This document shows positions 4,629 through 58,348 of a DNA stretch of 64,000 bases, one piece after another. Numbering within the stretch: the stretch's first letter is position 1; each line of letters begins with the position of its first letter. Under the pieces are notes generated by a model that worked only from the letters and a program-made list of their open reading frames with translations, ran no database searches and had not been told where the DNA came from. The position numbers and the translations under genes were made by a program. Source of the DNA: Dictyostelium discoideum (lineage: Eukaryota); assembly GCA_000004695.1 (NCBI GenBank), contig CM000154.2, forward strand, positions 1,408,001-1,472,000, in the 5' to 3' direction.

Positions 4629-7658
<3,030 letters not shown>

Positions 7659-12133: not shown

Positions 12134-13468
12134 ATGACTTGTAACATATCAAAGGTTGATATTGGTTTACCAGAATATTGGGTTTATAAAGGAGAAGGTG
12201 CAATGAATATTGTTTTATCATACAATGGCCCAAGAAATGAAAAATTAGTGTGTAAATTATTTATTTTAGATTTTTAAAAATCTTAATTTATCTATTACTA
12301 ATAAAAAATTGGAAAAAAATAACAATAATAATAATTAAAATAAAAGGATGGATTAGTATTAAGAGTTAAAAAATTAAGTAATGGTGGAAGTGATTTAGAA
12401 AAAGAGATAGGATTATATAATTTCGTATCAAATGTAATGTCACCATTGTTAGGAGATAAATATGTATTTCCAGGATCAATGATAAATGTTACAAGTGATT
12501 TCTTAGTGAAATTAGATAATTTAATATTTAATTATAGACCAATTAAAAGATCAACAATTAGATTAGATACAAATTTAACAACAGCATTTTTAATAATGGA
12601 TTTAACAAGATTAGATAATAATACACCAAATCAAATTGAATATTTACATCATCATAATGATAATGATAATAATAATGATAATAATGATAATAATAATAAT
12701 GATAATAATGATAATAATAATAATAATAATAATGAAATTGGTAATAATAAATTTAGTAAAGTTATTTGTATTGAAATTAAACCAAAATGGGCGTTCTTAC
12801 CAAAACCACATAAATATATGAATAGGGAGTTATTAGATGTCAAATTAAATAAATGTAGATATTGTATGCATCAACAATTGAAATTAAAGGAGGGATCAAT
12901 TGATGAAATTAGTAGTTATTGTCCATTGGATCTATTTAGTAGTGATTGTAATAGACAAAAACAATCAATTATCAATATGATTCATCATCCACAAAATAAT
13001 TTAAAAGTTTATTGTGATGGTATATTATCATTCACTGGTTCATTGGGTGGTGGTGTTGAAAGAAATAAATCAACAAATTCAAATTTATTATCATCACTAT
13101 TAATTAATAGTAACATTATTAAAAATAATAAAAAAGAAGAAAAAGAAGAAAAAGAAGAAAAAGGAGGAAAAGAAGAAGAGGAAATAGAAAGAAATATTTA
13201 TTTATTATCAACAATAATTTCATCAATTTTACAAAGGGAAACAATATTACAAAATATTAAAAATGTACAATTATATGATGATATGGATATAGAAGGTATT
13301 TATTATTTATATAATAAATTAAATGGTGGTCAAGTTAATAATGATATTAATTATGAAGAATTAAATAAATTAACTGATAGTGAAGCAAAAGAAAAGATTG
13401 ATAGATTCATGATTTCATGTACTGCTAAAGATTGTTCAATTATGATTTCATTTAATGTTGATAATCCA

Positions 13469-13559
<91 letters not shown>

Positions 13560-13792
13560 TTAATGATGTTGATAGTTATTTTAATTTTATAAATACTATT
13601 GATATTGGTGATAATGATGATACACTAATTAATAGTAGTGGTAATAAAGGTAAAACAAATATTCATTATAAAATTGGTGTTGTTGATTTGGATACAAAGA
13701 AAATGAATGCAATTCCAAAATATTATAAATTGGATCAAGATATTGTTAAACTTTATAAATCAAATATTAATACTATTAAATCATGTAAATAA
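12134..13792 (+). CDS. Inositol-pentakisphosphate 2-kinase (IPK1 family), about 590 aa. Exon 1 is 12134..12247 (or ..12251); exon 2 is 12347 (or 12357)..13792.
   Basis: Exon 1 gives MTCNISKVDIGLPEYWVYKGEGAMNIVLSYNGPRNEKL, which carries the IPK1 N-terminal signature W.Y.GEGA.N.VL.Y. Exon 2 gives ...RVKKLSNGG...ICIEIKPKWAFLPKP...CRYCMHQQLKLKEGSI..YCPLDLFS. (EIKPKW and the C..C zinc-related segment are typical of Ins(1,3,4,5,6)P5 2-kinase). Two alternative donor/acceptor pairs (GTGTGT/aaaag or GTAAAT/ttag) give products that differ by two residues. Confidence 0.7.
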
Positions 13793-14191: not shown

Positions 14192-18430
<4,239 letters not shown>

Positions 18431-22507: not shown

Positions 22508-23752
22508 ATGACAGAGGTTGTTAAAATTGATATTGAATTTAAAGAAATAAATCAAGATAATAATAATAATAATGGTGATGAGGAGGAAGAGGATAGGGAG
22601 GGGGAGGAGGAAGAACCAATGGAAGAAGGTGAAACATCATATATAAATAAAGATCAAAGAAAAGCAATGAGTGTTGATTTATCATTAGTAGAGGATGCAA
22701 TTATAATATCAAATAGAATTAAAGAGAAATGTTTACAATTGGTAAAATTAAAATCATCAACATCACCAATACTATCATCATCACCATCATCAAATGTTGA
22801 TGGATCAATAACACCACCACCACCAATTAAACCGACTCTTTCACCAATTGCATCAGTATTAGCCGATTCAATAATGTCAGATTTCATAGAGATAAAAAAA
22901 GCAATTCATAAAACTCATATCGATTCAGAAACTAAAAAAACAAAAAAGAATGAAGAGAAAGAGAAATTTGAAAAACTGAATCTTGTTTATCAAAACTATC
23001 TATATGAAAAAAATCATTTAGAAAAAGAAATTAATTCATATAAAGATTTTAAGTAAGTTTACTAATTTTAATACTAATAATAATAATAATTAATATTAAT
23101 ATTAAAAAATATATACTTTTTTTTATTTATTTATTATTATTAGAATTGATGATCAAAAACCTAAATTATTATCATTAGAAGATTTTGAAAATAAAATTAA
23201 AGATTGTACATCAATTAAATTAGAATCAGTTGACACTGGTAATGAAGAATTAAATCAACATAATTTATTATTAAATAGATTAAATTTTGAATTATATGAA
23301 AGAAATAGGTATGTTTTTTTAAAAAATAAAATTATTTATTTATTTATTTTTTGTTCAACAATTAATTTTTTTATTTTTTTATCTTTTTTTTTTTTTTTAC
23401 AGAACAATTGAACAATTAAACAAGATACAAAGAGATAAAAGATTACATTTAGGATTAAATACAACTAAACAAGAGTTTTTATCATCATTATTAACAAATG
23501 TTACAGCATTGGCATCAAATATATCAAATATTCAACCAAGTTCAACTAGTAATTATGAACAAAGTATATTCAATTTACCAAAACCATTATATGTATTATA
23601 TTATTCAGTGAATTCATATTTACAATCCAATACAAAATCAACAATGAATTCTGATAACCTATTATTAAAAATTAAAGGTGATATGGATAAAGCAACAATT
23701 TTTAATTCTGATTTTATGATTTATTCACAACAAACTCAACATCAACACCATC

Positions 23753-23845
<93 letters not shown>

Positions 23846-25197
23846 CACAAGAAGAAATAACACTTAGAAATAATAACAATAGTGATTATCATCCATTATC
23901 AGTGATTTTAGATTATTTAATATTCGATACAAAGGTATCATTAGAGTTTACTTGGGATTGGTTTAGAAATATTGTACTTTGTAAACCAATAGATCATTCT
24001 GATTTTTATTTATATAATATATTTCCAAATGATACAGGTTTATTAGCATCATTTACAGGTGATGTTGAAATTCCCCCAATTTCTATCACCTCACCAACCC
24101 CTCTATCACCAAAACCAATTAATAATCAACAACCATCACAACAACAATCTCATCAAAATAACATCAATGTTAATATTATTGATTCATATAATAGTGGATT
24201 CGGTAGACCATATAAATGGACACAAGTTTTATGTGGATTATTACCATGTAAATTTATTCAATCCGATAGTAACCAATCTACATTTAATCAATGGTCAATC
24301 ACTGCTAATATTATGAACTCTGTCTTAAAGAGATTAGAGTGTAAAGTTTCTTTAGAAAAACAAATTAATATTCTAAAGAGACAAGCATTAAATTATAAAT
24401 CAACAAATAGTACCTATAGAGAAAGAGAAAAAGAAAAAGAAAGAGAAAAAGAAAAAGAAAAAGAAAAGGAAAAGGAAAAAGAAAAAGAAAAAGAAAAAGA
24501 TAGAGATAGAGAAAGAGATAGAGATAGGGATAGAGATAGGGATAGAGACAGAGATAGAGATAGGGATAGGGATAGAGAAAGGGAAAGAGAAAGAGAAAGA
24601 GAAAGAGAAAAAGAAAAAGAAAAAGAAAGAGAAAAAGAAAGAGAAAGAGAAAAAGAAAGAGATAGAGAAAGAGATAATAACAGTAGTAATAGTAATAGTA
24701 GTAGTACAATAACACCATTTTCAACAACAATTAAATTTATGTCAGCATTATCAGAAACAGATTCAAATAATCCAACAATTTATGGATCAGATTTAGTAAA
24801 ACTATTCTTCAAGAATAGTTTTGCTGATATTGAAGTGTTAATTATAATTCCATCAGACTATCCATTGGTTCCACCAATTTTTCAAATTGAAACGGAGAGA
24901 TCAAAAGAGAATTTTAATAGTTTGGATAAAGATTTAAATCATATTTTATTATTACAAAGGGATCAAATCAATTCATTAGAAACCTTTTTGAATTCTCAAT
25001 TCCTTTTTCAAAATCCTCATCTTCAAGGTTGTTATGATTTATTTGGTCATTTAGTTCAAAGATTAAAAGATATTTTAGTATTCCTCGCTACCGATCCAAA
25101 GATTGTAAAGTCAAAATGTCAAGGTCGTTTAACAAAAGGAAAATTAAGAACTTTACCCTTTTCTATTGATTCTCAATCCTTGTTATGGAAACATTAA
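22508..25197 (+). CDS. thoc5: THO complex subunit 5 (THOC5) homologue with poly-Q and (KE/RE/RD)n insertions, about 800 aa. Exons 22508..23052, 23144..23308 and 23403..25197.
   Basis: ...NLPKPLYVLYYSVNSYLQ... corresponds to THOC5 LPPPLYVLYVQATAY. The C-terminal ...IEVLIIIPSDYPLVPPIFQIETERSKENFNS... corresponds to THOC5 ...YSSIPPVFQLCLNWKGEK. The N-terminal coiled coil fits too. Both introns have GTAAGT/GTATGT donors, AG acceptors and correct phases. Confidence 0.65.
24413..24675 (+). repeat. About 260 bp of pure homopurine (GA-only) on the coding strand, encoding (EKEK/RDRD/RERE)n.
   Basis: Direct observation: gaaagagaaaaagaaaaag...gatagagatagggatagagac...gaaagggaaagagaaagag. Not one pyrimidine on the plus strand across the tract. 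The repeat unit is imperfect. Confidence 0.9.
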
Positions 25198-26815: not shown

Positions 26816-30681
<3,866 letters not shown>

Positions 30682-31426: not shown

Positions 31427-34400
31427 TTACTTTGGAATTGCTGGTAATTTTTTAGAAATAGTTCCGCCAGTTGGTCTTAATAAAAAGCTACTTGAGGGAG
31501 ATGAAACTGTAGAGTTTGGAAGAGATGATGAGCCAGAAGGTGATGTATTGTTATTTGCTGTAAATTGTTTGAGTGTTGAAGATGGTAATGTACTTGATTG
31601 TCCAATTGTTTTGTTACCAGCAGATATGGAATTAAATTTAATTGGTGTTGTTGATGATGTTGTTGGAGGTGGGGGTGGTGAAGTAACACCTCCTGGAGTT
31701 GGTAATGGTTTTGAGGGTGGTTTGTTGATACTATTTGATGATAGACTTGATGGTAATGGTGGACGTGTAACAATAGTTGGGTTTGGAGTTTGATTTGTTG
31801 GTGGAGTTGAAGTAGTTTGGGTTGTTCCTACAGGTTTTTGAGGTAATGATCTTGGTGGTTTCAATACTGAAATTGGACTTGGAGTTGGGGTTTGAGTTGC
31901 TGTTGCTGTTGTTGCTATTTGAGGTGGTGATGATGGGTTTGATTTTGAGGTTGGAGTTGGTTTCAAATTTGATGATGTTGAATTTGTTGGAGTTGTTGGA
32001 GTAGTTGGAGTTGTTGGAGTTGTTGGAGTAGTTGGAGTTGAAATTGAGGTTGGTGATAGATTTGTTGGAGTTGGTGTTTTTAAGATTGGTACTGGATTTG
32101 GTGCTGGTGGTTTTTGAGAAGAAATTAATGTTGGCTTTGGTGTAATATTTGGTTTCATTGCAGTTGGAACTGATGGTTTTGGTGTAATATTTCCACCAGC
32201 TAAGATAGTTTGAACTGTTGGTGTAGTTGCAACTGATGTTGTTGTTGTTGTAGTAGTAGTTGGAACTGATGATACAATAACTGAAGGAGTAGGTGAAGTT
32301 GCTATTGGTGTGAAATTTTGAGTTAATTTTCTAACTAGTTGTGGATGAGGTTGAGGTGGTGAGGTTGTACCACTGCCACTACTTATGGTTGAAGATTTTG
32401 GTTTTGTTGTTGTTGTTGCACCTGAATTTGAGTTAAAACCAGTAGAGATTGTAGACTTGGCAGAATTTGTTGTTGTTGCAGTTGCAGGATTTAAACCAGA
32501 CATTATTAATAATCTTGAATGAATATCAATAAAGGTTGGTCTTTTAAGTGGATCATTTTGCCAACAATCAGTGATTAAAGTGATAAAGTCAGGATGACCA
32601 CAAACAGAGTTTTGAGGAATTGTTGGTCTTAGACCGTTAGTGATTTCATCTTCTAATTGATACATAAAAGAGGAATGAGCGACAGGATATTCATCAAATG
32701 GAAGTAAACCAGTTAAAATTTCCCATAGTACAATACCGAAACTGTAGACATCAGCCTTTTCAGTATACTCATCACCCCTCATGATTTCAGGAGATAACCA
32801 AATTGGATTCGAAAGTTTATCACGACCGAGGGCACTTGTAACGACAGCTCTAGTTTCACCAAAATCAGAGACCTTGCAAACCACAGCAGCATTCATATCG
32901 GAAAGCATTAAAATATTTGGGGATTTCAAATCACGATGACAAATCTTTGGAGTGAAACCATGCATATGTTTAATGGCATCGGCAATGTTGATTGCGATTT
33001 TCAATTTCAATTGCCAAGTGATTGAGGAGAAACTCTTTCTTAGATGACTATACAATGTTCCATTTGGTATGTACTCCATAACGATACAACATGGATCCAA
33101 ACAATAACCTTTCAAAGAAACTATACTTGGATGAGTTAGGGTGTTTGATAACCAAACTTCACGTCTAAATTCACGATAAATTTCAGAGGCAGCTTCAGCT
33201 TGGCCACTATCAATTGTGATTTGTTTAATTGCCACAAGTTGACCACGAAGTTTGCCTTTGTAAACTATACCAAAACCACCTTCACCAACTTTTTCAATGA
33301 TTTCAAGATCTTTATATTCTAGGGTAAAGTTTGGACCAATATCAGACATCATTAATTCAGGTACGAGTGAATCTAAACGAACTATAGTCTCTTCACCAGT
33401 GATGGAACTACGACAAACAACCTCGAATTTCTTTGATAAGAAGATACGTTCAATCTCTTCATATAAAAACATTGTACGTAAATCTTGAGTTTTAGAAGGA
33501 CCAAATGAAAGTTGTTGATTAATTAAATGTGAAATTTTTGATAAATCAAGTTGTCTTGATGAAGTGTTTGATAGTGAAGTAGATGAAGAGGAGGAGGAAG
33601 AGGATGAAACAGCAGTGGTCACTATTGAACTACTACTACCACTACCGGTTGTACCATTGATTTTTGGTTTATTAGTATTTCTATAGAGTGTTAAGAATTT
33701 AGAAGGATTCTTCTTTCTCTTTCCTTTTAATGTACCACCAGGTGAAACACTTTCACCATCGTAATAATCTGCAAAATCTAAATCTAAAATATCACCTGAA
33801 GTTTCATTTGATGATGAAGTTGAATCTGGATTTAATAATGGTGGTGATAATAATGATGGAGTTGATGATGAACTTGAAACATTTGAATTTAATGAATTTG
33901 TTGAAATACTACCACTCATTGATGATAATGAACTTGAATGTGTTAATTGTATTTGTGAAGATGATTGTTGTGATGCTAAAGATTGCGATGAAGATGATGT
34001 TGTTGTTGTTGCTGTTGTTGTTGTTGTTGTTGATAATTGTGGTTGTGATGTTGATAATGATGGTTGTGAAGATGTTAATGGTGTTGATAATGATGGTTGT
34101 GAAGATGTTAATGATGATGATGATGATGTTGATGTTGATGGTGATTGTTGTTGTTGATGATGTTGTTGTTGCGACATATTCACAATATTTACATTATTAT
34201 TATTATTACTACTTAAATTTATAGTACTATTAATAATATTAATTGAACCAATATTTGAAATTAAAATTGAATTACAATTGATACAATTACAAGGTACCAA
34301 GAAATGGAAATGTAATTTATACCAACCAGATATTAAAACTTCAGCTGTTTCAATTATAAATCTAAGGAGAGAAGCAGGATTTTTACCCCAAGCTTTAAAG

Positions 34401-37400
34401 TTAATTTGATTGAATTGTTGAATACTTTCAATTAAACATTGAGAATCATCTTTTTCAACCAAAAGTCCATTCTTCCAAAACTCTTTAACCGTAGTGAAAT
34501 GCATTGTTCTTATCATTAGTTTTGAAAAGAAACCAATTGGTAAGAATTCAAATTGATAAATTCTCTCTAAAAATGGTTGTTGTTGTTGACTCTTTAATAG
34601 AATTTGATCATAAAGTTTTTCAATTGAATTTGGTCTTTCTTCACTCAACAATATTGGTACTAAATGTTTTGTGCTACTCTTTGGAACTAATGTTATTGAA
34701 TCTGAGAAATTATTACTACTAGTATTTGGTGATGGTGTAGTAGAATTTGATGGTGATGTTGATTGATCATTGATTTTCTTTATAATACTTAATGAAGAAC
34801 CCTTTGAAATTGAACCATTACCAAATCTTGAAACATTTAATAATGATGTTGTATTTGTTGTACTATTAGTTCTATGTAAAGTTTTATTACCATTTGTTGT
34901 TGATGATGATGATGTTGATATTGCACTACCACTTGATTTCAAATTTGAACCTGAATTATTTAAAGATTTTTGAGTGGTTGATGGTGATGATGATGATGAT
35001 GATATGGTTGCTTTTGGATCAGGTAAAGGATGAACAATTTCAAACTTTTGTAAAATTGCTAATAAAACATGATGAAGATGTTGAGGGAAATCAGGTGGTT
35101 TCCAAATTTGATGAAGATTTGATTGATCTAGTACACCAGATTGTACGAAATTAGGTTTACTAGTGATAATGGTAGCCATAAGACGTGTTAACCAAGGGGG
35201 ATCAATGAAAATGAATTGATCAAGACCACTCTTTGGATCATCGAAATAAACGATTACACCCAATTCCTTTAAGAAATCAGCGGCAGCGGTGATTGAAGTT
35301 TGAGGGATACCACAAGAGATAGCCATTTCAGTGAATTCCGATAGGGTAATGATTGGTGGTGTATTCATTTCTCTTTCACTTAGGATTAAATTCTCCAATT
35401 GGAAATAACTTCTACTGAATAGATCACCCAATTTCTTTTCAGCTTTACCCAATTTGACGATATGATTCTGAAGTTTATTGATGTTTTTACCAGATTTACA
35501 ACTTACAGGTAAAAAGAATTTAACGTTTGGAAACTTTGTAAAATATTTACTGTGAATATCTTGAGTGATTTGATTGACATCTACACCATTTGGTAAATCA
35601 TCTAAATGAGTACCCACCAAGATAACTGGAGAATTACCACCAAACGCCTCGATACATTGTAACCAATAGGGTACACGTGATGTTTCATCAGGATTGTAGA
35701 CAGACATATCGAAAACCACAATGAAAACTGAACGACTACTAATAAAGAATTGATGAGTTGAATAGTAAACTTCTTGACCAGCAAAATCCCAAATTGAAAA
35801 AGTCACTGGTGGGGATTGATCCTCAGAGGGTGGTCTCCAATCGTCCATGTTGATACCATCAGTTGAGATATTTAAAGAGGTATTCAATGGGTTAATCGAT
35901 TGTGGGGCATTGAAATCAATTGAACCATTTGCTTCGGTTAGTGTTGGAGTTTTACTCTTCTTAGTGCCCAAACCAATGGTTTGACGTAACTTTTTACCCA
36001 CTGGTATAATCTCTTTCTTTAAACATTTTGCAATACTAGTTTTACCGACATTCTCTTGACCAACCAACATTAACTTCATACGCATACATGGTTTCTCCTT
36101 TGTTGATGCCAATTTCAAGTATTTCAAAATTCCAATTAAATCATCACCACTCAATACATCTGGTATTGAGATTTTAGCATTCGAAGCGCCATCGAATGAA
36201 ATTGGATTACCCGTTATATTTAAAACCTTTAGAGTTGTCAATTGTGATAATTGCCAAGGCAATGACTCTATGGCGTTATTTGATAGATTTAGAGTTTGCA
36301 ATGAAGAAAGTTTACCAATTTGTGGTGGTAAATCTTTGATACGATTATTTGTTAAATCCAATTCAATCAATGATGAAATTGAGCCAATTTCAATGGGTAA
36401 TGCTGATAGACCACAATCTGATAGATCCAATTTCGTGGCTTTTATAGCGATTGCTTCATAAATTCTTTGTTTAATTGGATGAAAACATGGTGAACCTGCA
36501 ATTGAAAATGATTCTAAACTCTTTAAACGTGTAAATATCTCAATTGGTAAACGATTGAAATAATTTCTTTGCATCATCAATACCTTTAGATTAACCAATT
36601 GTGATAAACTATTAACATTTATAGTTTCAATGAAATTGAAACTAATATCCAAATGATTCAATTTACATAGTGTACCAAGTTCAATTGGTAACGATGATAA
36701 ATTATTATGAGAAACATTTAAAAGTTTCAATTCTTTCATCTCTGAAATTTCACTTGGTAATGATGACAATTGATTATTTGATAAATCTAAAATTTGTAAA
36801 TTCTTTAATTCCTTTAAAATTGAAACTGGTATACTACTAATACAATTATGATCTAAATATAATTCTTTTAAATCTGAAATTCTTCTACTATCCAATGATA
36901 ACATATTTAATTTATTTAAAAGTTGTAATGAAATTTCTGAATAATCACATGATCCTAAATCTAATAATCCTTTATTATTATTTATTATTGTTGAACTTGT
37001 TGTTGAAGTTGAAGTTGATGGTGTTGTTGATTTTTGATTAACTTGTAATTGTTTTTTCTTTTTATCTAAACGATTTGTAACTGAAATTGCTTTTAATTTT
37101 ATACGATCACTATATTCTGGTGGTATTGATGGTAAAGTTATTCTTGATAAAACTGTACTATGACAAGAAACCCATTGATCAATGATTTCAGCACCCATTG
37201 ATTGAGTGATATTATTATCTTCTAAAAATAAGGCATTTAAAGTTTGATTAAATTTTAAAAGTTTTGAAATATGTTTTGCACCAGTATCTGTGATTTGATT
37301 CTGAGTTAAAATGACCACGGTAATTGATGGATGTGATAGAATACCATCAATCAAAGATATCAGACCTTTATCGGCTATTGTATTCTCGCTTAAATCCATT

Positions 37401-38981
37401 TGAATCAATGAATGATTATAACGTAACATATCACCCAATGCAACTGCACATGGATCATTGATTGAATTTTGAGATAATGTTAAATGAGTGATACTCTTAT
37501 TCAATGACATCATACCCAATGTCATTTGCATATACTTATCATTCATTGTCAATGGTATGAAAATTAATTGATTTACAAAATGTGTTGATGCCAATGCCGC
37601 AAACAATGGTTTTGGATCTGATATTTTCAACATTTGTGAAGTTAATTCAACCTTTGGTCTTTGACCACTAATTATCATTTTACAAAATAATGCAATATCT
37701 TTTGCATCTTCAAATTCATCTGGACCATCATCATTATTACTACCGTTATTATTACCGTTATTATTATTATTAAAATCATCAATTCCGCCTAAACCAATTG
37801 TACTATTTCTACCACCTGCTACAGTTGAGGAATAAGAATTGGTTAAATTATTTTGATTTTGATTTTGATTTTGATTTGATTTTAAAGAAGCTTGAGATAA
37901 AACTTGAAACCAAGTTGATTTCTCTTTTTCTGATGAAGTCATATAAAATATTGAAGATTCTTTAGTTTTAATTTGAAAACCTTTTCTATATTCAAATCCT
38001 AACTCTGGATCATCAACTTGAATATTTACAATTCTCTCCAACTTTTTCAATAAATAAAATGAACCATCATATGCCATCATTGTATTATTATTAATTGTAC
38101 TTGTATCTTCAATCTTTTCTGTAAATAATATTATATCTGAAAATAAAAATGTATAATATGAAATTCTTTGATTATTAAATTGTTCAATTAAAATACCTTC
38201 TTTTAAAAATTTTCTATTTTGAACAATATCTGAACTCTAAAAAAAATAAAAAAAAATTAATGTTAATAAATAATGGAAAAAATATAAATTTTTAAAAAAA
38301 AAAAAAAAAACACAACTTACATTAAATAAACCAATTGTTGGTGATTTAATTGATTTTGAAATTGAGATAACTTTGTTAATGTTTACAGATTCATTTACAA
38401 TATCTTTAACAACTTGAACAATTTGTTTATATAAATTATTGTATGGTTTATAATCTGGATTTAATACTGCTATTGAATCAATTAAAGATTTAAAGAATTG
38501 ATGAAATCTTGCCAAAAAATGAATTGGTAATATTAAAAGTGATGCTAAATTACTATAAGTATATTCCTGTGTGAATTTACCTGTTACACTATTACTATTA
38601 TTTATACCACTACTACCACCACCACTATTATTATTATTATTATTACTGTTAGCGCTATTTATTCCAGTAAATGTATGACCAGTTCTTCTTAATGTAACAG
38701 CTGGGAAAGAACTACCACTACTATTATTTGTTGATTGTGATGTAGTTTGATCATATTGTGAACCTAGAATCTCTGAAAGTGATACAGGTTTAACACAAGA
38801 TGATGATGATGAAGTTGGAACTAATGGTGCCAATGAATACTTGTGTTCATTAACTAACTTGCTCTCTGCATTATTTATAAAACTTTCAAATCTTTGATTA
38901 TCAAACATTAATAAACATAAACTACTTAAACTATAATTATATTGTAATCCATAAACTTTATATAATTTTAAATATCCAACC

Positions 38982-39031
<50 letters not shown>

Positions 39032-40036
39032 TGAAAATGAAAATGAAAATATTAATATATAAATTTTTTAATTAAATTAAAAAAAGTAATTTGTAATACA
39101 AACAAATTGTAAAAATGTTGAATGTAATTGCGCTTGAGTAGTTGAATTCCAATTACTAATATATTTTTTAAAGTCAATGAGAATTGTTTGTTGAAATGAT
39201 GAAATTGATTCAATTAAAGAGAAAATTGCCTTTAATTCCTCTTGTGATAATAAATCTGCTTTCTTTAATGGTTGATAAAACACATCCAATATCACTTTAA
39301 TTGCATCGCTACATCCTTGAAGTGATTTCATAAATCCTTCAACTAATTTCCTTCTATTCTCGTCAACTGGTGATTCATTAATTGAGTCCTCTTTATTATC
39401 TTTATCTTTTTCTTTTTCTTTTTCTTTTCTATTTTTTGGTGAATGTTCATTACTTATATCTTTACCACTTGCATTATTATTACCGCCGCTATCTAATGAA
39501 GTTACATTTATTTTTACAGTTTCTTTATTATTCGATGATGATACATTACTTCCAGTAGTATTGGAAGTTTTATTATTATTATTTATATTATTATTACTAG
39601 TATTGTTATTTTGTACAGATACCAATGAAGGTATATTATTTGATGATGTTGTTGTTGTAGTTGTGGTTGTAGTTGATGTATTCGTTACCCAGAAATCCAT
39701 TGCTTTTTTATGATTCTCTTGTGTCGTTGGATTTAATAAAATTGCATTTGCTTCTGCTGTGGATTGTGCTGATACTGATGAAGGTGGTGGTGGTGGAGGT
39801 GGTGTTGGTTCTGTTAAGTTACCAACCCATCCACCTACAATACTAAATAGACCGCCATCCTTTTCTTTATCCTTTTCCTTTTCCTTTTCTTTTTCTTTCT
39901 TTTCCTTCTTTTCTTTTTCTTTTTTCTCTTTATCTTTTTTCTCTTTTTTTTCAGATTTATCTTTTTTCTCTTTATCTTTTTTCTCTTCTTTATCCTTTTT
40001 CTCTTTATCTTTTTTCTCTTTTTTAATTACTTCCAT
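31427..40036 (-). CDS. Roco-family (LRRK-like) protein kinase of about 2800 aa. Three exons: 40036..39104, 38980..38321 and 38236..31427.
   Basis: Exon 1 (track ORF 39077..40036) gives the (KEKKD)n and poly-P N-terminus and the first half of a Dbl-homology domain: ...ENRRKLVEGFMKSLQGCSDAIKVILDVFYQPLKKADLLSQEELKAIFSLIESISSFQQTILIDFKKYISNW...STFLQF. A GTTTGT donor in phase 0 then joins to a ttattaag acceptor. Exon 2 gives VGYLKLYKVYGLQYNYSLSSLCLLMFDNQRFESFINNAESKLV...SNLASLLILPIHFLARFHQFFKSLIDS...YNNLYKQIVQVVKDI (the DH C-terminal half) and then ...IGLFN. A GTAAGT donor joins to a ttttag acceptor. Exon 3 gives SSDIVQNRKFLKEGILIEQFNNQRISYYTFLFSDIILFTEK... (PH domain) fused in frame to the 2217-aa track ORF. 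That ORF holds LRRs (LxxLxLxxNxL repeated), a Roc GTPase (LMLVGQENVGKTS...WDFAGQE...), a COR domain, and a Ser/Thr kinase (VGEGGFGIVYKG...VAIK...HRDLKSPNIL...DFGETR...). A roughly 600-residue S/T/P tail closes it. Total 8403 nt, with all junctions in frame. The domain order DH-PH-LRR-Roc-COR-kinase is what I recall for the RhoGEF-containing Dictyostelium Roco (roco5). That identification is from memory and unverified. Confidence 0.75.
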
Positions 40037-46379: not shown

Positions 46380-47069
46380 TCAATAAAAAGAAAAATTTTC
46401 TGGTTCAGTATTTTTGTGTTTTGGGGATTTTGGTTTTTTAATTGGTTTTTCATCTTGTTTTGGTTGTTTTAAATGTGGAAAAGATAGTTTTGGTTGTATT
46501 GATGATTGTTGATGGTCTAATTTTGGTTGATCATGTTGTTGGGAAAGAGGTTCTACAATTTGGGGTATTTTAACTCGAGTTTGTTCTTCTTCCTGTTGTT
46601 GTTGTTGCTGCTCTTGTTGTTCTTGTTGAATATCATGGTCAACAAAATCTGATTGAGAATCAGATTGACTGAATGAACAATTTTCTAAATTTTTAAAACT
46701 TTCAAAATGGTTTGTAACATAAGTATATGTACCAGCCAATACTCTTTCAGAAACAATTTGATCTTCAATTTTATTCATCCATTTTAGTTTTTCATCACTT
46801 ATTATAATTAGAGCTCCTAAACTTAAGGTACCCAAGTTTGAACTACTACTAGTAGAAACTTTTTTTGAATTATGATAAATTGCAAATCCACTTGGGTATC
46901 TATAGTCATAATCGCATACTCTTGAAATATTGGATAATGAAATTACAGTAGCCTTTTTATTAAATAATGAGTTCTTTTCTGCAAATACAATTCTTTGATT
47001 AAATAAATACAATGTACCTTCTGAAGTACTACCATTTTTATTGACCTTTTTAACTTTTCCTTCTCTATA

Positions 47070-47103
<34 letters not shown>

Positions 47104-49288
47104 AATTAATATTATTAGAATAATTATTATTTTTAATTATATTATTAAAAGATTATTATTTTAAACTTACCCTATAAAAGTTTGATGATGTAATAAATAT
47201 TCTATATCTTTTGTGCCAATTTCTTTAATGATTTCTTGGATTTTAGTATCATTTTTCATTTTACCATTAATATCACTGACAATCTTTCCCATTAAAGAAG
47301 TTGTACGTTTAATGGTTTTATGGTTTTGTTCATCTTCTTTTGGTAATGCTTTACTCAATTCTTTTAATAATAAAGGATATTTACAAAGTCTTTGACATGG
47401 TTTAATTAAAAATGAATGTAGATTGTTTAGTTTACAAATTGGTATTAATTTTTGAAATATTTGTGCTGCTGTTTGATTTGTTAATAAAATTTCCTGTAAA
47501 AATTTATTACAACTATCATGTGATGATAAATATGATCCATATCTTTGAAAACTTTTACTCTATAATATTAAAAATATTATTAATTAGTATTTTTTTTTTT
47601 TTCTTATCTAATAATTGTTTTTTTTTATTTTTCAAAAGACTTACATTAAATAAAAAAACTTCTTCAATATTTGGATATTGATTCTTTTCTAATAATGGAA
47701 TACAATTTAATAACATTGGATAAATTTTTAAAGAAATATGATAAACTTCTTCAAAATTTGAAAAGATTGAAAAAATATCTCTTTTTTCCAATATTTTATA
47801 TTTTACCATTTCCAATGCGGCAAAAAGATAAAAATTAATTGTAATTTCCATATGGTCTAAATAGTCTGCCTCAGTTTCTATGATTTCTTTAACAACCTTA
47901 TTAAAAATGGTTGAATCATTAATATATGGTAATTGTGATCTTCTTGATGGTATTGATTCAAATTTTTGTTGTTGTTCTTCAATTTTTTCAAATATAACAG
48001 ATTTGAAATCAAATTTATTAAAAAGAGATGGTCTTTTTTTTGATACTGTTGCATTTGGAATTAATGTACTAACTGGTTCTTCTGGTAAACTTACAGTTCT
48101 ACCATGTTTTGTTTCTGTAACTTTTAATGTGTCCTTGTTATTATTATTGTTGTTATTATTATTATTATTATTATTAGTAGTAGTATTGTTATTATTATTA
48201 TTGCTATTATTTTTATTTGTTGTTTGATTTTCTTGATCATCTTCATCACTACAAGAACCTCTAAGATTATATGAACTTTTACTAATTACAAATGAACCCC
48301 TATTAGAAGAAGATACACTTTTAAGATTAGGTTCACTATCAAGAGTAGTACCACTCTTTTTGGATAGTTCTGATTCATTTTCATCATCGGTATCAACTCC
48401 ATTATCAAGTAATTTCATAGTGGCAGCTTTTCTAGTAAAAACTCTTTGTCTTCTAGTTCTAACGACAGGTGATATTTGTGATTGACTTAACTCTGATGAA
48501 TCATTACCAAAAACATAGTCATCAAAGTTTTCAAAATTAGGTTTTGATGGTTCAAAATTTAAAAAATTACTTGGAGATTTACCACCACTTCCACTACTAC
48601 TACAACAACTACCACTACTATTTAATGATGATGGAAATATTGTTGGGTTTGTTACATCAAATAGAGTTGTTGACCTTTTTGGTGCTATATTTGAAAATGA
48701 ACTATCGATTGGTTTATTTGCCGATCTCCAACCATTTGATGTATTTAATAAATTTCCAAGAGGTGGTGGCGATGATGACAATGGAGATGTGGAGTTTTGT
48801 AAACCCTCATTATTATTTTGATCATTAAAAGTTTCAATTTTAGAAGGTACTCTTGGTAATGGTTTAGGTGCCATTGTGTGATAATCTTCTTTCTCTTGAT
48901 CGATTGGTATTGGTGGAAGAGGTTTATTTTTATTAAATTCTGGTGAATTAAATTGTGGTGGAGTTGTTGATGTTTTAATATCTTCACCACTATAATTGTC
49001 ATCATAATTATCATCATAATTGTCACCATCTTCTTTTTTTTCAAATGTAATATTAATTGATGGTGGTGTTGTTGGTATATAATTAGTGATTTTTTCATCT
49101 GCACCATCATTCATTAAAAATGCTCTTGGTGGAACAGGTGGACGTTTTGGTTTTGGTAATGGTTCAAGTAATGGCATGGATAAACTTTTTCTTCTTGATC
49201 TTTCTCTATTATTATTTTTGATATTATTGGTATTACTATTATTATTGTTATTGTTATCAAATGATTTTGATAAATTTTTTATTTCCAT
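46380..49288 (-). CDS. RhoGEF (DH-PH) protein, paralogue 1, about 905 aa. Exons 49288..47645, 47559..47171 and 47064..46380.
   Basis: Exon 1 carries an N/P-rich N-terminus with an FTRKAATMKLLDNG motif and the start of the DH domain (FNKVVKEIIETEADYLDHMEITINFYLFAALEMVKYKILEKRDIFSIFSNFEEVYHISLKIYPMLLNCIPLLEKNQYPNIEEVFLFN). An AAT|GTAAGT donor joins to a tattatag acceptor. Exon 2 gives SKSFQRYGSYLSSHDSCNKFLQEILLTNQTAAQIFQKLIPICKLNNLHSFLIKPCQRLCKYPLLLKELSKALPKEDEQNHKTIKRTTSLMGKIVSDINGKMKNDTKIQEIIKEIGTKDIEYLLHHQTFIG (the DH C-terminal half). A GG|GTAAGT donor joins to a tattatag acceptor. Exon 3 gives EGKVKKVNKNGSTSEGTLYLFNQRIVFAEKNSLFNKKATVISLSNISRVCDYDYRYPSGFAIYHNSKK...DEKLKWMNKIEDQIVSERV (PH domain) and ends at 46380. 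2718 nt in frame. It is colinear with paralogue 2, which is unspliced in this region. Confidence 0.8.
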
Positions 49289-52822: not shown

Positions 52823-54575
52823 TTAAATTAAGTCATGTTCTTTTAATAAATCTTCAAGTGAGGAGGCATAATCTTGAACCCATTTTTTACATTGAGCATT
52901 GTATTCTGTAATATTATCACGATAAATTCCAGCTTTTACACTAATGTATATGTAAAAAAAAAAAATAAAAAAAAAATTAAGTTAAGATTTATTTATATTT
53001 TTTTTTCCAAAGAAAAAAAAAAAAAAAAAAATTAAATACTTACACATCTAATGGATCCATTGGATTTGGATTAGATAAAAGTGAATGAATTGAAAGTAAA
53101 ACTTTTTCAGTAGTGATAGCAGCAGACCAGTGGTCTTTTAAAATATCTAAACATATATTACCATCAGTATTGATATTACAATGATAGATACGATTTTCAA
53201 ATCTAACTTTTGGTGGTGCAAATGGATAGATATTTGGAAATTGAACAGAGAGTACGAAATGACCACCTTCATATGGTGTATCAACTACACCTTTCATTAT
53301 AACTTTCCAAACTGAAATATCATTTGGATTTGCATAAAGTGTGAATATTGATGATTTACCATTTTTATTTAATTCTTCAATTGATTTTTGAAAACTGATA
53401 TACTCTCTATAAATTCTTTTACTTGTACCACCAGCACCACTACCATTATTAATATTATTTGAAATTTCATCAAGTTTTTGTTGATCAATTTTTGAAACAC
53501 ATGTTATACCTTTAAGAGCACTATCAACTTTACGAGAGATTGTTTTCAATAAATCACCTTTTAATGATGAAAATTGTTGTTCATTTTCAATTGGGGAAGA
53601 GAATGGAGAGAAGGAATCTCTTTGAGTTGGTATTAATAAAGCTTCACGTTCAAATAGTTCAACACCTTCTTGGGTTGAATTTGCCATGAAACAACTACCA
53701 CCAGTTGCTTTAGTAAGAGTTGATAATGTACTATTATCATCTCTACCAATTGGAATTGCATCCAATATAATATTTAATGGTTTTAAATATTGATAAACAT
53801 TATAAGGATTAATATTTGAGGTATCTTGACCATCAGTTAATAAGAAAATTCTACAACAAACATCTGGTGCTAATTTCTCTTTTGGATTATTTCTATATTT
53901 TTCAATCTCATTTGCTGCATGATAAATTGCTTCATATAATCTTGTAGAACCTTGATTTGCAACAACTTCACCCAATTCTTGTGAAAATGAATCAAAATTT
54001 TTACTAATTTCAAATGCTGTATCAATTTTTTGACCAAATAATACTAAACCAGCAACTACTGGTACTTCAAATGAAACATATTTATCCAACATTGTTTGAA
54101 ATAATGCTTGTGAAACTTCACTTCTATTCATTTCAAGCAAACCTGGTTTTGTTGACCCATTATATGCCACAGCTGTCATTGAACATGAAACATCTAATAC
54201 AATCATATCAATTTGTTTAATTAAAAATTCATTACTATTTGACATTTCAATTTTTTTATATTCCAAATCAATAACATTTTTAGAATTATTAGTAGTAGTG
54301 GTAGTTGTTGTTGTAGTTGTTGTAGTTGTTGGTACTAATTTTGATTGATTAATTAAAATTAATTTTGAATTATCAGGAATTGATAAATCACCAATTGTAT
54401 CGGTTTCAAATAATTCACTATTTTCATATTGTAATTTAAAATTATTATTATTATCTTTGTTTTCCAAATTAACTGCTTTTAAAATTTGATTAATTAATTC
54501 TTGTATTGTTATTTCACTTTTAAATGGAAAATTAATTGTTTTATCAATTGATGGTACTGAAATTATTAAAGTCAT
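52823..54575 (-). CDS. Ubiquitin-like domain, von Willebrand factor A domain and UBC (E2) core fused in one protein of about 549 aa. Exons 54575..53044 and 52940..52823.
   Basis: N-terminus: MTLIISVPSIDKTINFPFKSEITIQELINQILKAVNLENKDNNNNFKLQYENSELFETDTIGDLSIPDNSKLILIN (ubiquitin-like beta-grasp pattern), then a poly-T linker. vWA: MIVLDVSCSMTA...GSTRLYEAIYHA...RIFLLTDGQDTS, with the intact MIDAS residues D-x-S-x-S ... T ... D. UBC core: RIYREYISFQKS...NPNDISVWKVIMKGVVDTPYEGGHFVLSVQFPNIYPFAPPKVRFENRIYHCNINTDGNICLDILKDHWSAAITTEKVLLSIHSLLSNPNPMDPLDV|VKAGIYRDNITEYNAQCKKWVQDYA.... The catalytic Cys (ICLDIL) and the H-x-N of HPN (here HCN) are present. Intron: GT|GTAAGT donor and cattag acceptor, phase 2. 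1650 nt in frame. Confidence 0.75.
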
Positions 54576-55357: not shown

Positions 55358-55481
55358 TTAGTTTGAGGTATTATTATTATTATTAATATTATTATTTATA
55401 CATTCACCACTATTTTCTAAACTTGTATTATTTGAGTTTATATTATTTTCATTAATATTATTTTCATTAATATTATTATTG

Positions 55482-55567
<86 letters not shown>

Positions 55568-57522
55568 ATTAATATTAATATCTTTTTCAGAGACATTAAA
55601 TTTATAAGAACCAGTTAAAATCTTTAATATATTAATTGCCTCATCAATATCATTTAACCAAATTAATTTATCTTGATAATTATCACAAGAAAGTTTAATT
55701 GATAATGTGTTAACATTTACAGTTGGTGTTGAATTTGTTGTTGTGGTTGTAGTTGTTGGTGTTGAATTTGTAGTTGTTGTAGTTGTTGGTGGTGTTGATG
55801 ATGTTGTATCATTTGTTGAAGATAAATTATTTTGATTATTATTATTATTATTTTGAATATCATTATCATTTAAATAATTAATTGAAATACCAAATTGAAG
55901 TTCTCTTTCAATATCAATAATTTCTAAAATATTTTTTAAAGGAATAATTTTAACCTTTTTTTTAAAGGTACCTTTTTCAAAGATAATTAAAATTTGACTT
56001 AAAAGGTATAAAGTTACAATTACTTTATTACCTTTTTTTTTTAATTTTTTAATTCTATTTGAAGATTTTAAAAATGTTTGATCACGTAATTGTTGTTCAA
56101 TATCTTTTGTACCAATTTCTTTAACAGTTGATTGAATTTTATTATCATTTGCCATTTTACCATTGATATCATTGACGATCTTTTCCATTAATATTAAAGA
56201 ACGTTGGAATATTTTATGATGTTCTTCAGCCTCCAATGAATCATCTTCTGGTGGTAATGCCTTTTTCAACTCTCTTAATAGCAATGGATATTTACAAAGT
56301 CTTTGACATGGTTTAATTAGGAATGATTGTAGATTCAATTGCTTTGAATGTGGTAACGATTTAACATATTGAAAGATTTGATTCACTACATTGTTTCCAT
56401 CGATTAATGAATTCAAAACTTTGATTGAATGATCATGTGTTGATAAATATGAGCCATATCTTTGGAATGCTTTTGAATTGTAAAGAAAGATCTCTTCAAT
56501 ATTGGGATACTGATTCTCATGGTCCAACACTGGTATAATATTCAATAACATTGGGTAAAGGCGTAACGAAACGTAGTAAAGCTCTTCAATATTTGAAAAG
56601 ATTTGATAGATATCATTTGCTGTCATTAATTTATATTTTGACATTTCCAATGCTGCGAAATAATATAAATTAATTATAACCTCCATTTGATCGATATAAT
56701 CTGCTTCAGTTTCAATGATCTCTTTAATCACCTTATTAAATGATGTTGATGAATTAATTGGTGGTAATAATGATTTTCTACTTGGTTTTTGTGATAATTG
56801 AGTGGTGATTGTATATTGTACATTTATCTTTTCGATTAATATAGTCTTTATATCTAATGTATCTCTTCTTAATGTACCTGATATAAATGATGTTTTCTTT
56901 TTATGTGATGATATAAAATTACTAACTGATAATCCATTATTAGGATTAATATTAATTGAAATATTATTAAAACTTGTATCATTTAATGAATTTGTTGATG
57001 TTGTTGTTGTTGATGCTGATGATGATGCTGATGCTAATGATAATGAACTGTTTGAATTATTTGAATTATTTGAATCATCACTATTAAAACTATTAATTAA
57101 ATCATTATTAATATTTTCATTACTATTGATTGTTAAAAATTCATTTGAGACTGAATTTGATGGCGACATTGATGGTGGTGTTGTTGATGGTGTTGGATTT
57201 GCTGATGATGGTGTTGATGGTGATACTGATGTTGGTGTTGTAGATAACGACAAGGATGAAAAATCTTCACCATTTAATTTCATTGATGCTTGTTTTCTTG
57301 TAAAGGTTCTTTGTCTAAGAGTTCTTAAATCTGATGCCGCTATATTTTGAGAATCTTGAATTGGTGCTATAATTGGTGTTTGTTCAATTACTACTGTTGG
57401 TGTATTGGTTATATTTGCTGTTGATAATGATGTTACTGGTATTGGTGATATATCATTTCTTGGTGCAATTTTTGGTCTTGGTGGCTTAGTTGATGTTGGT
57501 GGTAAAGGTTTATTATTATTAC

Positions 57523-57582
<60 letters not shown>

Positions 57583-57873
57583 ATGCTATGGTTTGTGAAG
57601 GTGGAGTTGTTGGTGGTGTTGTTACATTATTATTTATTGTTGTTGTTGTTGTTGCTGTTGTTGCTGTTGTTGATGATGGTGATAAAGTTTGATATTTTAC
57701 ATTTGTTGAATTTATATTTGTTGATGTTTTTGTAGTTGCTATTGTTGGTGGAGTAGTTAAAGTACCACTAGAACTCCATGGTCTCGGTGGTGGTGCAGGT
57801 TTATCATTTGGTGGTGGTATTGGTAAAGTTTTTACAGAATGTGATCCAAGTTTTGAAATATAATTATTATCAC

Positions 57874-57955
<82 letters not shown>

Positions 57956-58348
57956 GTTATTAGTGGTGGTAGTATTTAGTGCTTCATCTGGATTTGGTGG
58001 TACTGGTGAAGTTGGTCTTGATGGTAATTTTGGTAATGGTGAGGGTGGTCTAGTTGGTAATTGACGTCTTGGTGATGGTAATGGTGATAAAATTGTAGGT
58101 GTAGGAGCAGGTGATGGTGATGGTGATGGTGAGCCTGATATATTATTATTATTATTCTTCTTTATTATAGATGTTGGTGATAATGTATTTGGTGATAAAT
58201 TACTTGGTGTATTATTATTGGCACTACCACTATTATTAATGTTATTTATAGTTGATAGTAAAGGTTTTGGTGGTAGAGAGGGTGATGATGATGAAGATGC
58301 TGTTGATGATGATGATGATGGTTGTTGTTCATTATATTTTGAAATCAT
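55358..58348 (-). CDS. RhoGEF (DH-PH) protein, paralogue 2, at least 996 aa in a single exon. A possible extra 5' exon lies at 58756..58493.
   Basis: The track ORF holds a P/S/T/N-rich N-terminus, an LRQRTFTRKQASMKLNGEDFSS motif, and a DH domain (SFNKVIKEIIETEADYIDQMEVIINLYYFAALEMSKYKLMTANDIYQIFSNIEELYYVSLRLYPMLLNIIPVLDHENQYPNIEEIFLYNSKAFQRYGSYL...FLIKPCQRLCKYPLLLRELKKALP...KIVNDINGKMANDNKIQSTVKEIGTKDIE). It then has a PH-like region (NRIKKLKKKGNKVIVTLYLLSQILIIFEKGTFKKKVKIIPL...) and an N/T-rich tail. It is about 75% identical to paralogue 1 across the DH domain. Confidence 0.8.

Follow-up and report, generated by a model that had tools for sequence, protein, structure and literature searches.

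A probable three-exon gene for the Roco kinase Roco5 of Dictyostelium discoideum and the exchange residues of its N-terminal DH-PH module

On its minus strand, a stretch of 64,000 nucleotides (nt) from Dictyostelium discoideum (contig CM000154.2, positions 1,408,001 to 1,472,000; hereafter, the window) carries an open reading frame (ORF) of 2217 amino acids (aa) with leucine-rich repeats (LRR) and Roc, COR and kinase domains. The locus raises the question of whether this ORF is a gene by itself or the last exon of a larger one, as proposed in an initial annotation that joined it to two upstream exons coding for a Dbl homology (DH) and a PH domain, the module typical of Rho guanine nucleotide exchange factors (RhoGEFs). 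A second question follows, namely what such a module would do on a Roco kinase. By its sequence, the region is D. discoideum roco5, and the best explanation overall is that its three exons very probably encode one polypeptide of 2800 aa. The exchange activity of the DH domain is a more evenly balanced matter, several canonical residues being replaced.

Three consecutive ORF pieces lie on the minus strand at 40036..39077 (319 aa), 38908..38237 (223 aa) and 38080..31427 (2217 aa). The exons assembled from them by script gave a product of 2800 aa with a terminal stop codon and none internal. The gene model comprises the following parts (positions are those of the window).

31427..40036, minus strand: the entire coding region of roco5, with 3 exons and 2 introns, for 2800 aa and a stop, based on the stop-free spliced translation and the N-terminal identity with the published entry DDB0184765
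39104..40036, minus strand: exon 1, 933 nt, aa 1-311, with a K/E-rich N-terminus, a P7 run, an S/T/N-rich linker and the first part of the DH domain
38981..39103, minus strand: intron 1, 123 nt, GTTTGT...AAG, phase 0, 6.5% GC, with (ATT)14
38321..38980, minus strand: exon 2, 660 nt, aa 312-531, with the remainder of the DH domain including its insert
38237..38320, minus strand: intron 2, 84 nt, GTAAGT...TTTTAG, phase 0, 9.5% GC
31427..38236, minus strand: exon 3, 6810 nt including the stop, aa 532-2800, with PH, LRR, Roc, COR and kinase domains and an S/T/P-rich tail

Since the length of every exon is divisible by 3, both introns are in phase 0. The two introns had been described as canonical and in phase, which agrees with their GT..AG borders, their phase and the stop-free frame of 2800 aa, but not with the donor of intron 1, a GT that departs from the GTAAGT consensus (GTTTGT in roco5; GTATGT or GTAAGT in orthologues). 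Reading through either intron meets in-frame stops, in-frame stops also lie just upstream of the start ATG at 40036, and AATAAA, looked for in both introns, was present in neither. Near the junctions there were other stop-free in-frame GT..AG pairs, one for junction 1 and four for junction 2, which were rejected because each inserts or deletes residues relative to the published protein or to the gap-free alignment of orthologues. Antisense ORFs within roco5 (for example 33730..34224, plus strand) were discarded as low-complexity mirror frames. As a separate observation, the (ATT)14 microsatellite of intron 1 is uninterrupted and is accompanied by a TTTTCA repeat in three copies.

The arrangement could alternatively be read as two separate genes, an upstream DH-PH exchange factor and an independent Roco kinase starting at aa 584 of the spliced product. 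The 2217-aa ORF (31427..38080) begins with an ATG and stands alone, and P0017, a gene model of 496 aa with RhoGEF only, shows an instance of annotation elsewhere in which the N-terminal part became detached. Nevertheless, the first methionine of this ORF (Met584) is found midway through the PH domain, so the ORF, real as it is, cannot be the complete gene, and its frame is open further upstream to the acceptor of intron 2. Moreover, the gaps between the exons measure 123 and 84 nt, whereas the next intergenic spacer on the downstream side has 745 nt.

The published record bears on the same point. Supplementary table S2 of the Dictyostelium kinome of Goldberg et al. 2006 contains the line "DDB0184765 Roco5, TKL, Roco, VAIK, HRDLKSPN, DFG" (PMC1420674). 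Over the N-terminal 399 aa compared with the Roco5 sequence in that supplement, the spliced product was identical at 399/399 positions, and the match ran exactly through junction 1 (311|312; ...STFLQF|VGYLKLY...). Kinase-domain fragments given for Roco5 in another supplementary file of the same paper matched exon 3, allowing for noise from optical character recognition, and no difference was detected over the parts of the published sequence compared. A single published Roco5 entry has both the N-terminus of exon 1 and the kinase of exon 3, and therefore the same protein joins exon 1 to exon 3, contrary to a division into two genes. The resemblance to Dictyostelium Roco5 proposed in the initial annotation is borne out by the N-terminal identity together with the exon 3 kinase motifs and fragments, as far as these parts of the entry extend. 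UniProt Q1ZXD6, which we take to be 2800 aa long, is the entry for this protein, and its dictyBase gene identifier is presumably DDB_G0294533. The assignment of roco5 to Q1ZXD6 is given in a review (PMC7888446).

Homology searching returned four entries in which RhoGEF, PH, LRR, Roc, COR and kinase domains belong to single gene models (D. purpureum, Polysphondylium violaceum and two dictyostelid-like entries). The D. purpureum orthologue has 2578 aa and 71% identity, with 67-87% identity to D. discoideum across the DH-PH module, and the orthologues begin with a similar K/E/D-rich sequence. All four orthologous models align gap-free over both junctions and are continuous, which again speaks against two genes. 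The introns of D. purpureum and P. violaceum were located by mapping the annotated proteins onto the DNA of their loci. Each locus has exactly two, both in phase 0 and at the same codon boundaries as in roco5 (...QF|[VI]G[YF]LKLY... and ...IGLFN|ST[DE]I...), while the intron sequences are unrelated. A second search, using a DH-PH profile, returned solely the fragmentary P0017, a eukprot gene model with the RhoGEF part only and 51% identity to the Roco5 DH-PH; candidate selection in this search was probably swamped by low-complexity words. Probably, P0017 is an orthologue that automated gene modelling separated from the Roco core. Altogether, the division into two genes is effectively refuted.

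The domain order of the product was determined by a Pfam scan of the whole 2800 aa and by scans of the isolated N-terminal segment with and without the insert in the DH domain. It runs from a K/E-rich N-terminus through DH, PH, LRR, Roc, COR-A and COR-B to a TKL-type kinase and an S/T/P-rich tail, as follows.

39857..40036, minus strand: charged K/E/D-rich N-terminus, aa 1-60, with KEKKD-type repeats, read from the sequence; all orthologues start similarly
39782..39802, minus strand: proline run PPPPPPP, aa 79-85, read from the sequence
38840..39364, minus strand: N-terminal part of DH, aa 225-358, in a span that includes intron 1, with Gly234 in the CR1 helix; PF00621, 54-70 bits
38564..38839, minus strand: insert in DH, aa 359-450, mostly low complexity, with the island KPVSLSEILGxQ; the Pfam match is contiguous once it is deleted
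38324..38563, minus strand: C-terminal part of DH, aa 451-530, with CR3 LLILPIHFLARFH (no Lys/Gln/Arg) and alpha9 Asn507 kept
37895..38212, minus strand: PH domain, aa ~540-645, containing Met584; PF16652, with FGD5 and SOS1 DH-PH structures aligning
36185..37462, minus strand: leucine-rich repeats, aa ~790-1215, in two blocks, the first of RI type and the second of typical LRR; LRR_8, LRR_14, LRR_4, LRR_6, LRR_1
35450..36088, minus strand: Roc GTPase, aa ~1248-1460, with P-loop GQENVGKT (1257), DFAGQ (1348) and THLD (1407); PF08477, 76 bits (cut-off 27), and PF00071, 43.8 bits
35018..35413, minus strand: COR-A, aa 1473-1604; PF16095, 94.2 bits
34277..34570, minus strand: COR-B, aa 1754-1851; PF25497, 75.5 bits
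32510..33307, minus strand: protein kinase, aa 2175-2440, with VAIK (2199), HRDLKSPN (2298), DFG (2322) and SPE (2346); PF07714, 165.9 bits, and PF00069, 149.8 bits
31430..32509, minus strand: S/T/P-rich low-complexity C-terminal tail, aa 2441-2800, read from the sequence; the C-terminal end is similar in orthologues

The order DH-PH-LRR-Roc-COR-kinase in one polypeptide, as initially proposed, was thus detected by Pfam in the spliced product, with LRR, Roc, COR-A, COR-B and kinase all above threshold. In the whole product the RhoGEF match covered aa 246-353, spanning junction 1, and PF00621 scored 54.3-70.5 bits (cut-off 27.6). Without the insert of ~92 aa, the match reached 70.5 bits over profile positions 16-179 of 180. 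The DH domain is split over exons 1 and 2 as suggested; it is also interrupted by this insert. The PH domain does extend into the first residues of the 2217-aa ORF. It was recognised by PH_13 (PF16652) at 28.6-32.2 bits, above the cut-off of 27; PF00169 scored 20-23.6 bits, below its gathering score of 25.1, and a match to SOS1_NGEF_PH was also sub-threshold. Among the Pfam models named beforehand for this protein, PF00169 was the only one below threshold, as PF00621, PF08477, PF16095 and PF00069/PF07714 all passed. The DH-PH structure of FGD5 aligned along both domains (E 2.8e-10). The charged (KEKKD)n repeat was found at the N-terminus, while the reported run of nine prolines has seven (PTPPPPPPP).

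The product has the characters of the Roco family, a Roc domain with nucleotide-binding motifs and a COR domain directly C-terminal to it, and those of the LRRK type (group 1), with LRR before Roc and, after COR, a TKL-type kinase with catalytic motifs. The GTPase motifs G1, G3 and G4 and the kinase motifs VAIK, HRD and DFG are intact. It also shows DH homology with a PH domain directly C-terminal, as in the Dbl family. Two local features were observed in addition. In Roc, ~35-50 extra residues, conserved in orthologues, lie between the P-loop and switch I (window about 35,880..36,060, minus strand; aa ~1265-1320), and the Pfam Roc match covers profile positions 30-119 only. In the insert of the DH domain, the island KP[VI]SL[ST]EILGxQ (window about 38,745..38,790, minus strand; aa ~377-390) is invariant in all five orthologues and was weakly aligned by HMMER to the CR3 helix of LARG.

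In Dbl exchange factors, the glutamate of conserved region 1 (CR1) and residues of conserved region 3 (CR3) and helix alpha9 contact switch I and switch II, and mutating them cripples exchange. When the Roco5 sequence alone was aligned to solved DH domains, helix alpha1 was never included. The CR1 register was determined from the orthologue profile against solved DH structures and from a MAFFT alignment with a canonical GEF gene that neighbours roco5 in the window. In the profile, CR1 of LARG (INELFYTE) aligned to LVEGFMKS of Roco5, and MSTE of collybistin to MKSL. The MAFFT alignment with the neighbouring GEF (CR1 KEIIETEADY, CR3 FLIKPCQRLCKYPLLL, alpha9 IVNDING) gave the same register. Specifically, the position of the canonical CR1 Glu was occupied by G/S/N/N/N in the five orthologues (Gly234 in Roco5), the canonical Thr-Glu was replaced by Ser238-Leu239, and K-P-x-Q-R of CR3 by L462-P-I-H465-F466, within an invariant LPxHFLxRFH. 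The alpha9 Asn (Asn507) was kept in 4/5 orthologues, with Thr in D. purpureum. From the set of canonical exchange residues of the Dbl family (CR1 Glu, CR3 Lys and Gln-Arg, alpha9 Asn), Roco5 keeps only Asn507. Judged from the alignments, these replacements bear on catalytic competence and not on DH homology.

These departures are shared by SOS1, whose DH-PH (PDB 1dbh) ranked second among the solved structures matched to the orthologue profile (E 6.7e-9), with the PH domain aligning too. Helix alpha1 of SOS1 (DLVKAFMAEIRQY) aligned to KLVEGFMKSLQGC of Roco5, and in SOS1, too, the canonical CR1 Glu is missing, as are the K/Q/R of CR3 (LLLAPVYHCLHYF in SOS1, LLILPIHFLARFH in Roco5). The DH-PH of SOS1 is known chiefly as a regulatory module. 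Unlike in Roco5, it is coupled to a REM-Cdc25 RasGEF and not to Roc-COR-kinase, and the likeness is one of motifs, with no demonstrated specific relationship. Canonical Dbl GEFs (LARG, intersectin, collybistin and two GEFs of the window) share with Roco5 the PH domain directly after DH and gave significant Pfam/PDB sequence matches. They differ from it in having Glu, Thr-Glu, Lys and Gln-Arg where Roco5 has Gly234, Ser238-Leu239, Leu462 and His465-Phe466, and in the ~92-aa insert that separates the two halves of the Roco5 DH domain.

Regarding function, the Roc-COR tandem would mediate dimerisation and, as a GTP-dependent switch, control the kinase in cis, in line with established knowledge of the Roco family (GbpC, Roco4, LRRK2), and the conserved DH-PH would tie the kinase to signalling by Rho-family GTPases, to membranes or to both. 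The high conservation of the DH-PH argues that it is functional in some way. Because the CR1 Glu and the CR3 Lys/Gln-Arg are lost in every orthologue, we favour a non-canonical, SOS1-like binding or regulatory module, which appears somewhat likelier than a fully active canonical Rac/Rho exchange factor, although the case stands close to an even balance.

The initial annotation had gone further and regarded the kinase output as hard-wired to Rho/Rac activation. An active Rho/Rac exchange DH-PH would allow one polypeptide to activate Rac in trans and to deliver Roc-gated kinase activity at the same site. Such a role fits a DH domain above the Pfam threshold (54-70 bits) with PH directly after it, the Asn507 present in 4/5 orthologues and a module under constraint, as judged from the 67-87% identity between D. 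discoideum and D. purpureum. It is difficult to reconcile with a CR1 Glu position reading G/S/N/N/N and an invariant L-P-x-H-F in CR3, given that mutation of the CR1 Glu is generally crippling in Dbl GEFs, while the two neighbouring GEF genes in the window keep textbook motifs. The residues found leave hard-wiring not established and somewhat weakened, and we consider it a serious possibility that falls short of an even chance. A more specific form of the non-canonical reading would make the DH-PH a conserved, SOS1-like pseudo-GEF that lost canonical Rho exchange chemistry throughout dictyostelids; in place of exchange, it would regulate the Roc-COR-kinase core intramolecularly or provide that core with a Rac-GTP/lipid-binding input. 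This proposal is tentative and, taken singly, may well be wrong; if true, it would reverse the idea of a kinase hard-wired to Rac activation, and it is not discussed in the literature searched.

GbpC (Roco1) suggested another route, in which an N-terminal GEF-type module loads its own Roc with GTP and thereby turns the kinase on. Like Roco5, GbpC has an LRR-Roc-COR-kinase core and a small-GTPase GEF in the same polypeptide, and according to a review its GEF activates Roc, which in turn activates the kinase (PMC6320773). A divergent DH surface in Roco5 could reflect a non-Rho partner. In contrast to the N-terminal DH-PH of Roco5, however, the GEF of GbpC is a C-terminal RasGEF (Cdc25-type) accompanied by cyclic GMP-binding, DEP and GRAM domains, and the Pfam scan of the 2800-aa product found no cyclic-nucleotide-binding domain. 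Roc is not Rho-like, and to our knowledge DH domains act on Rho-family GTPases only. An intramolecular cascade of this type is therefore improbable for Roco5.

Several points weigh against our explanation of the locus, that is, one spliced polypeptide with a non-canonical DH-PH module. Support for junction 2 is indirect and comes from the same published entry, the alignment of orthologues and the conservation of the introns. An exact-sequence look-up of the 2800-aa product in a protein collection gave no match; this says nothing against the gene model, since that collection apparently lacks D. discoideum proteins, its best homology match being the D. purpureum orthologue. As regards mechanism, which we infer, the retained alpha9 Asn and the highly conserved DH-PH would also be compatible with an active but unusual GEF. 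The AlphaFold2 model of the DH-PH, built on a 5-sequence alignment, had a mean predicted local distance difference test score of 32.6 and was unusable. The literature searched contained no biochemical data or exchange assay on Roco5.

Among known proteins, human LRRK2 and LRRK1 share with Roco5 the LRR-Roc-COR-kinase order, a TKL-type kinase and a THLD-type G4 motif in Roc. LRRK2 differs in the N-terminal armadillo/ankyrin repeats and the C-terminal WD40 that the literature describes for it, and it has no DH-PH; the Pfam scan of the 2800-aa product gave no WD40 match. Roco proteins serve as models of LRRK2, the Parkinson's-disease kinase, and among them Roco5 is one of the less studied. A search of the literature for Roco5 together with RhoGEF found no paper, the 2010 work of van Egmond and van Haastert, reportedly the primary characterisation with a knock-out survey of all roco genes, being outside the literature searched. 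According to reviews, D. discoideum has 11 Roco genes, whose LRR-Roc-COR-kinase cores are flanked by RasGEF, RhoGEF, RhoGAP, DEP, WD40 or PH domains, an account for which they cite Bosgraaf & van Haastert 2003; a link between roco5 and both growth and development has also been described. In its main text, the kinome paper assigns RhoGEF domains to one LISK and one STE kinase alone and to no ROCO (PMC1420674), yet the Roco5 sequence of its supplement contains DH-PH (window 38324..39364). Probably, the divergent, insert-split DH of Roco5 was missed by the domain scan of that era.

The gene and its domain composition are already known in the literature and public databases, so roco5 does not matter as a discovery; the case mainly shows that a spliced Dictyostelium gene can be reconstructed from raw sequence. 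A GEF-type domain that lacks canonical catalytic residues and is highly conserved nonetheless poses a testable question on how N-terminal modules talk to the Roc-COR-kinase core.

Regarding the neighbourhood, the strand that carries roco5 has two further RhoGEF genes upstream of it, so that three DH-domain genes occur within a span of about 27 kb.

55358..58348, minus strand: RhoGEF gene
46380..49288, minus strand: RhoGEF gene

One of the two is an ORF with a full-length DH (129 bits), and an intron divides the DH of the other. Both have canonical DH motifs that hardly differ between the two (KEIIETEADY; FLIKPCQRLCKYPLLL), on which basis they are probably tandem paralogues. On the other side, 745 nt downstream of the roco5 stop, an ORF of 606 aa (28861..30681, minus strand) has a poly-Asn tract of ~65 residues and poly-Ser/Thr tracts, and gave no Pfam match. 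The window is extremely AT-rich, with a GC content of 25-40% where it is coding and of 6-15% otherwise, and its proteins contain poly-N, poly-S and poly-T tracts, as is typical of a dictyostelid genome. Other genes code for a UBC-domain protein, an inositol-pentakisphosphate 2-kinase, a kinesin motor, a THOC5-like protein and a VWA+UBC protein, and the coordinates listed for them are 6354..7658 (plus strand), 12437..13792 (plus strand), 15239..18430 (plus strand), 23509..25197 (plus strand) and 53040..54575 (minus strand). As most of their Pfam matches start in the middle of the profile, these ORFs, too, are single exons of spliced genes.

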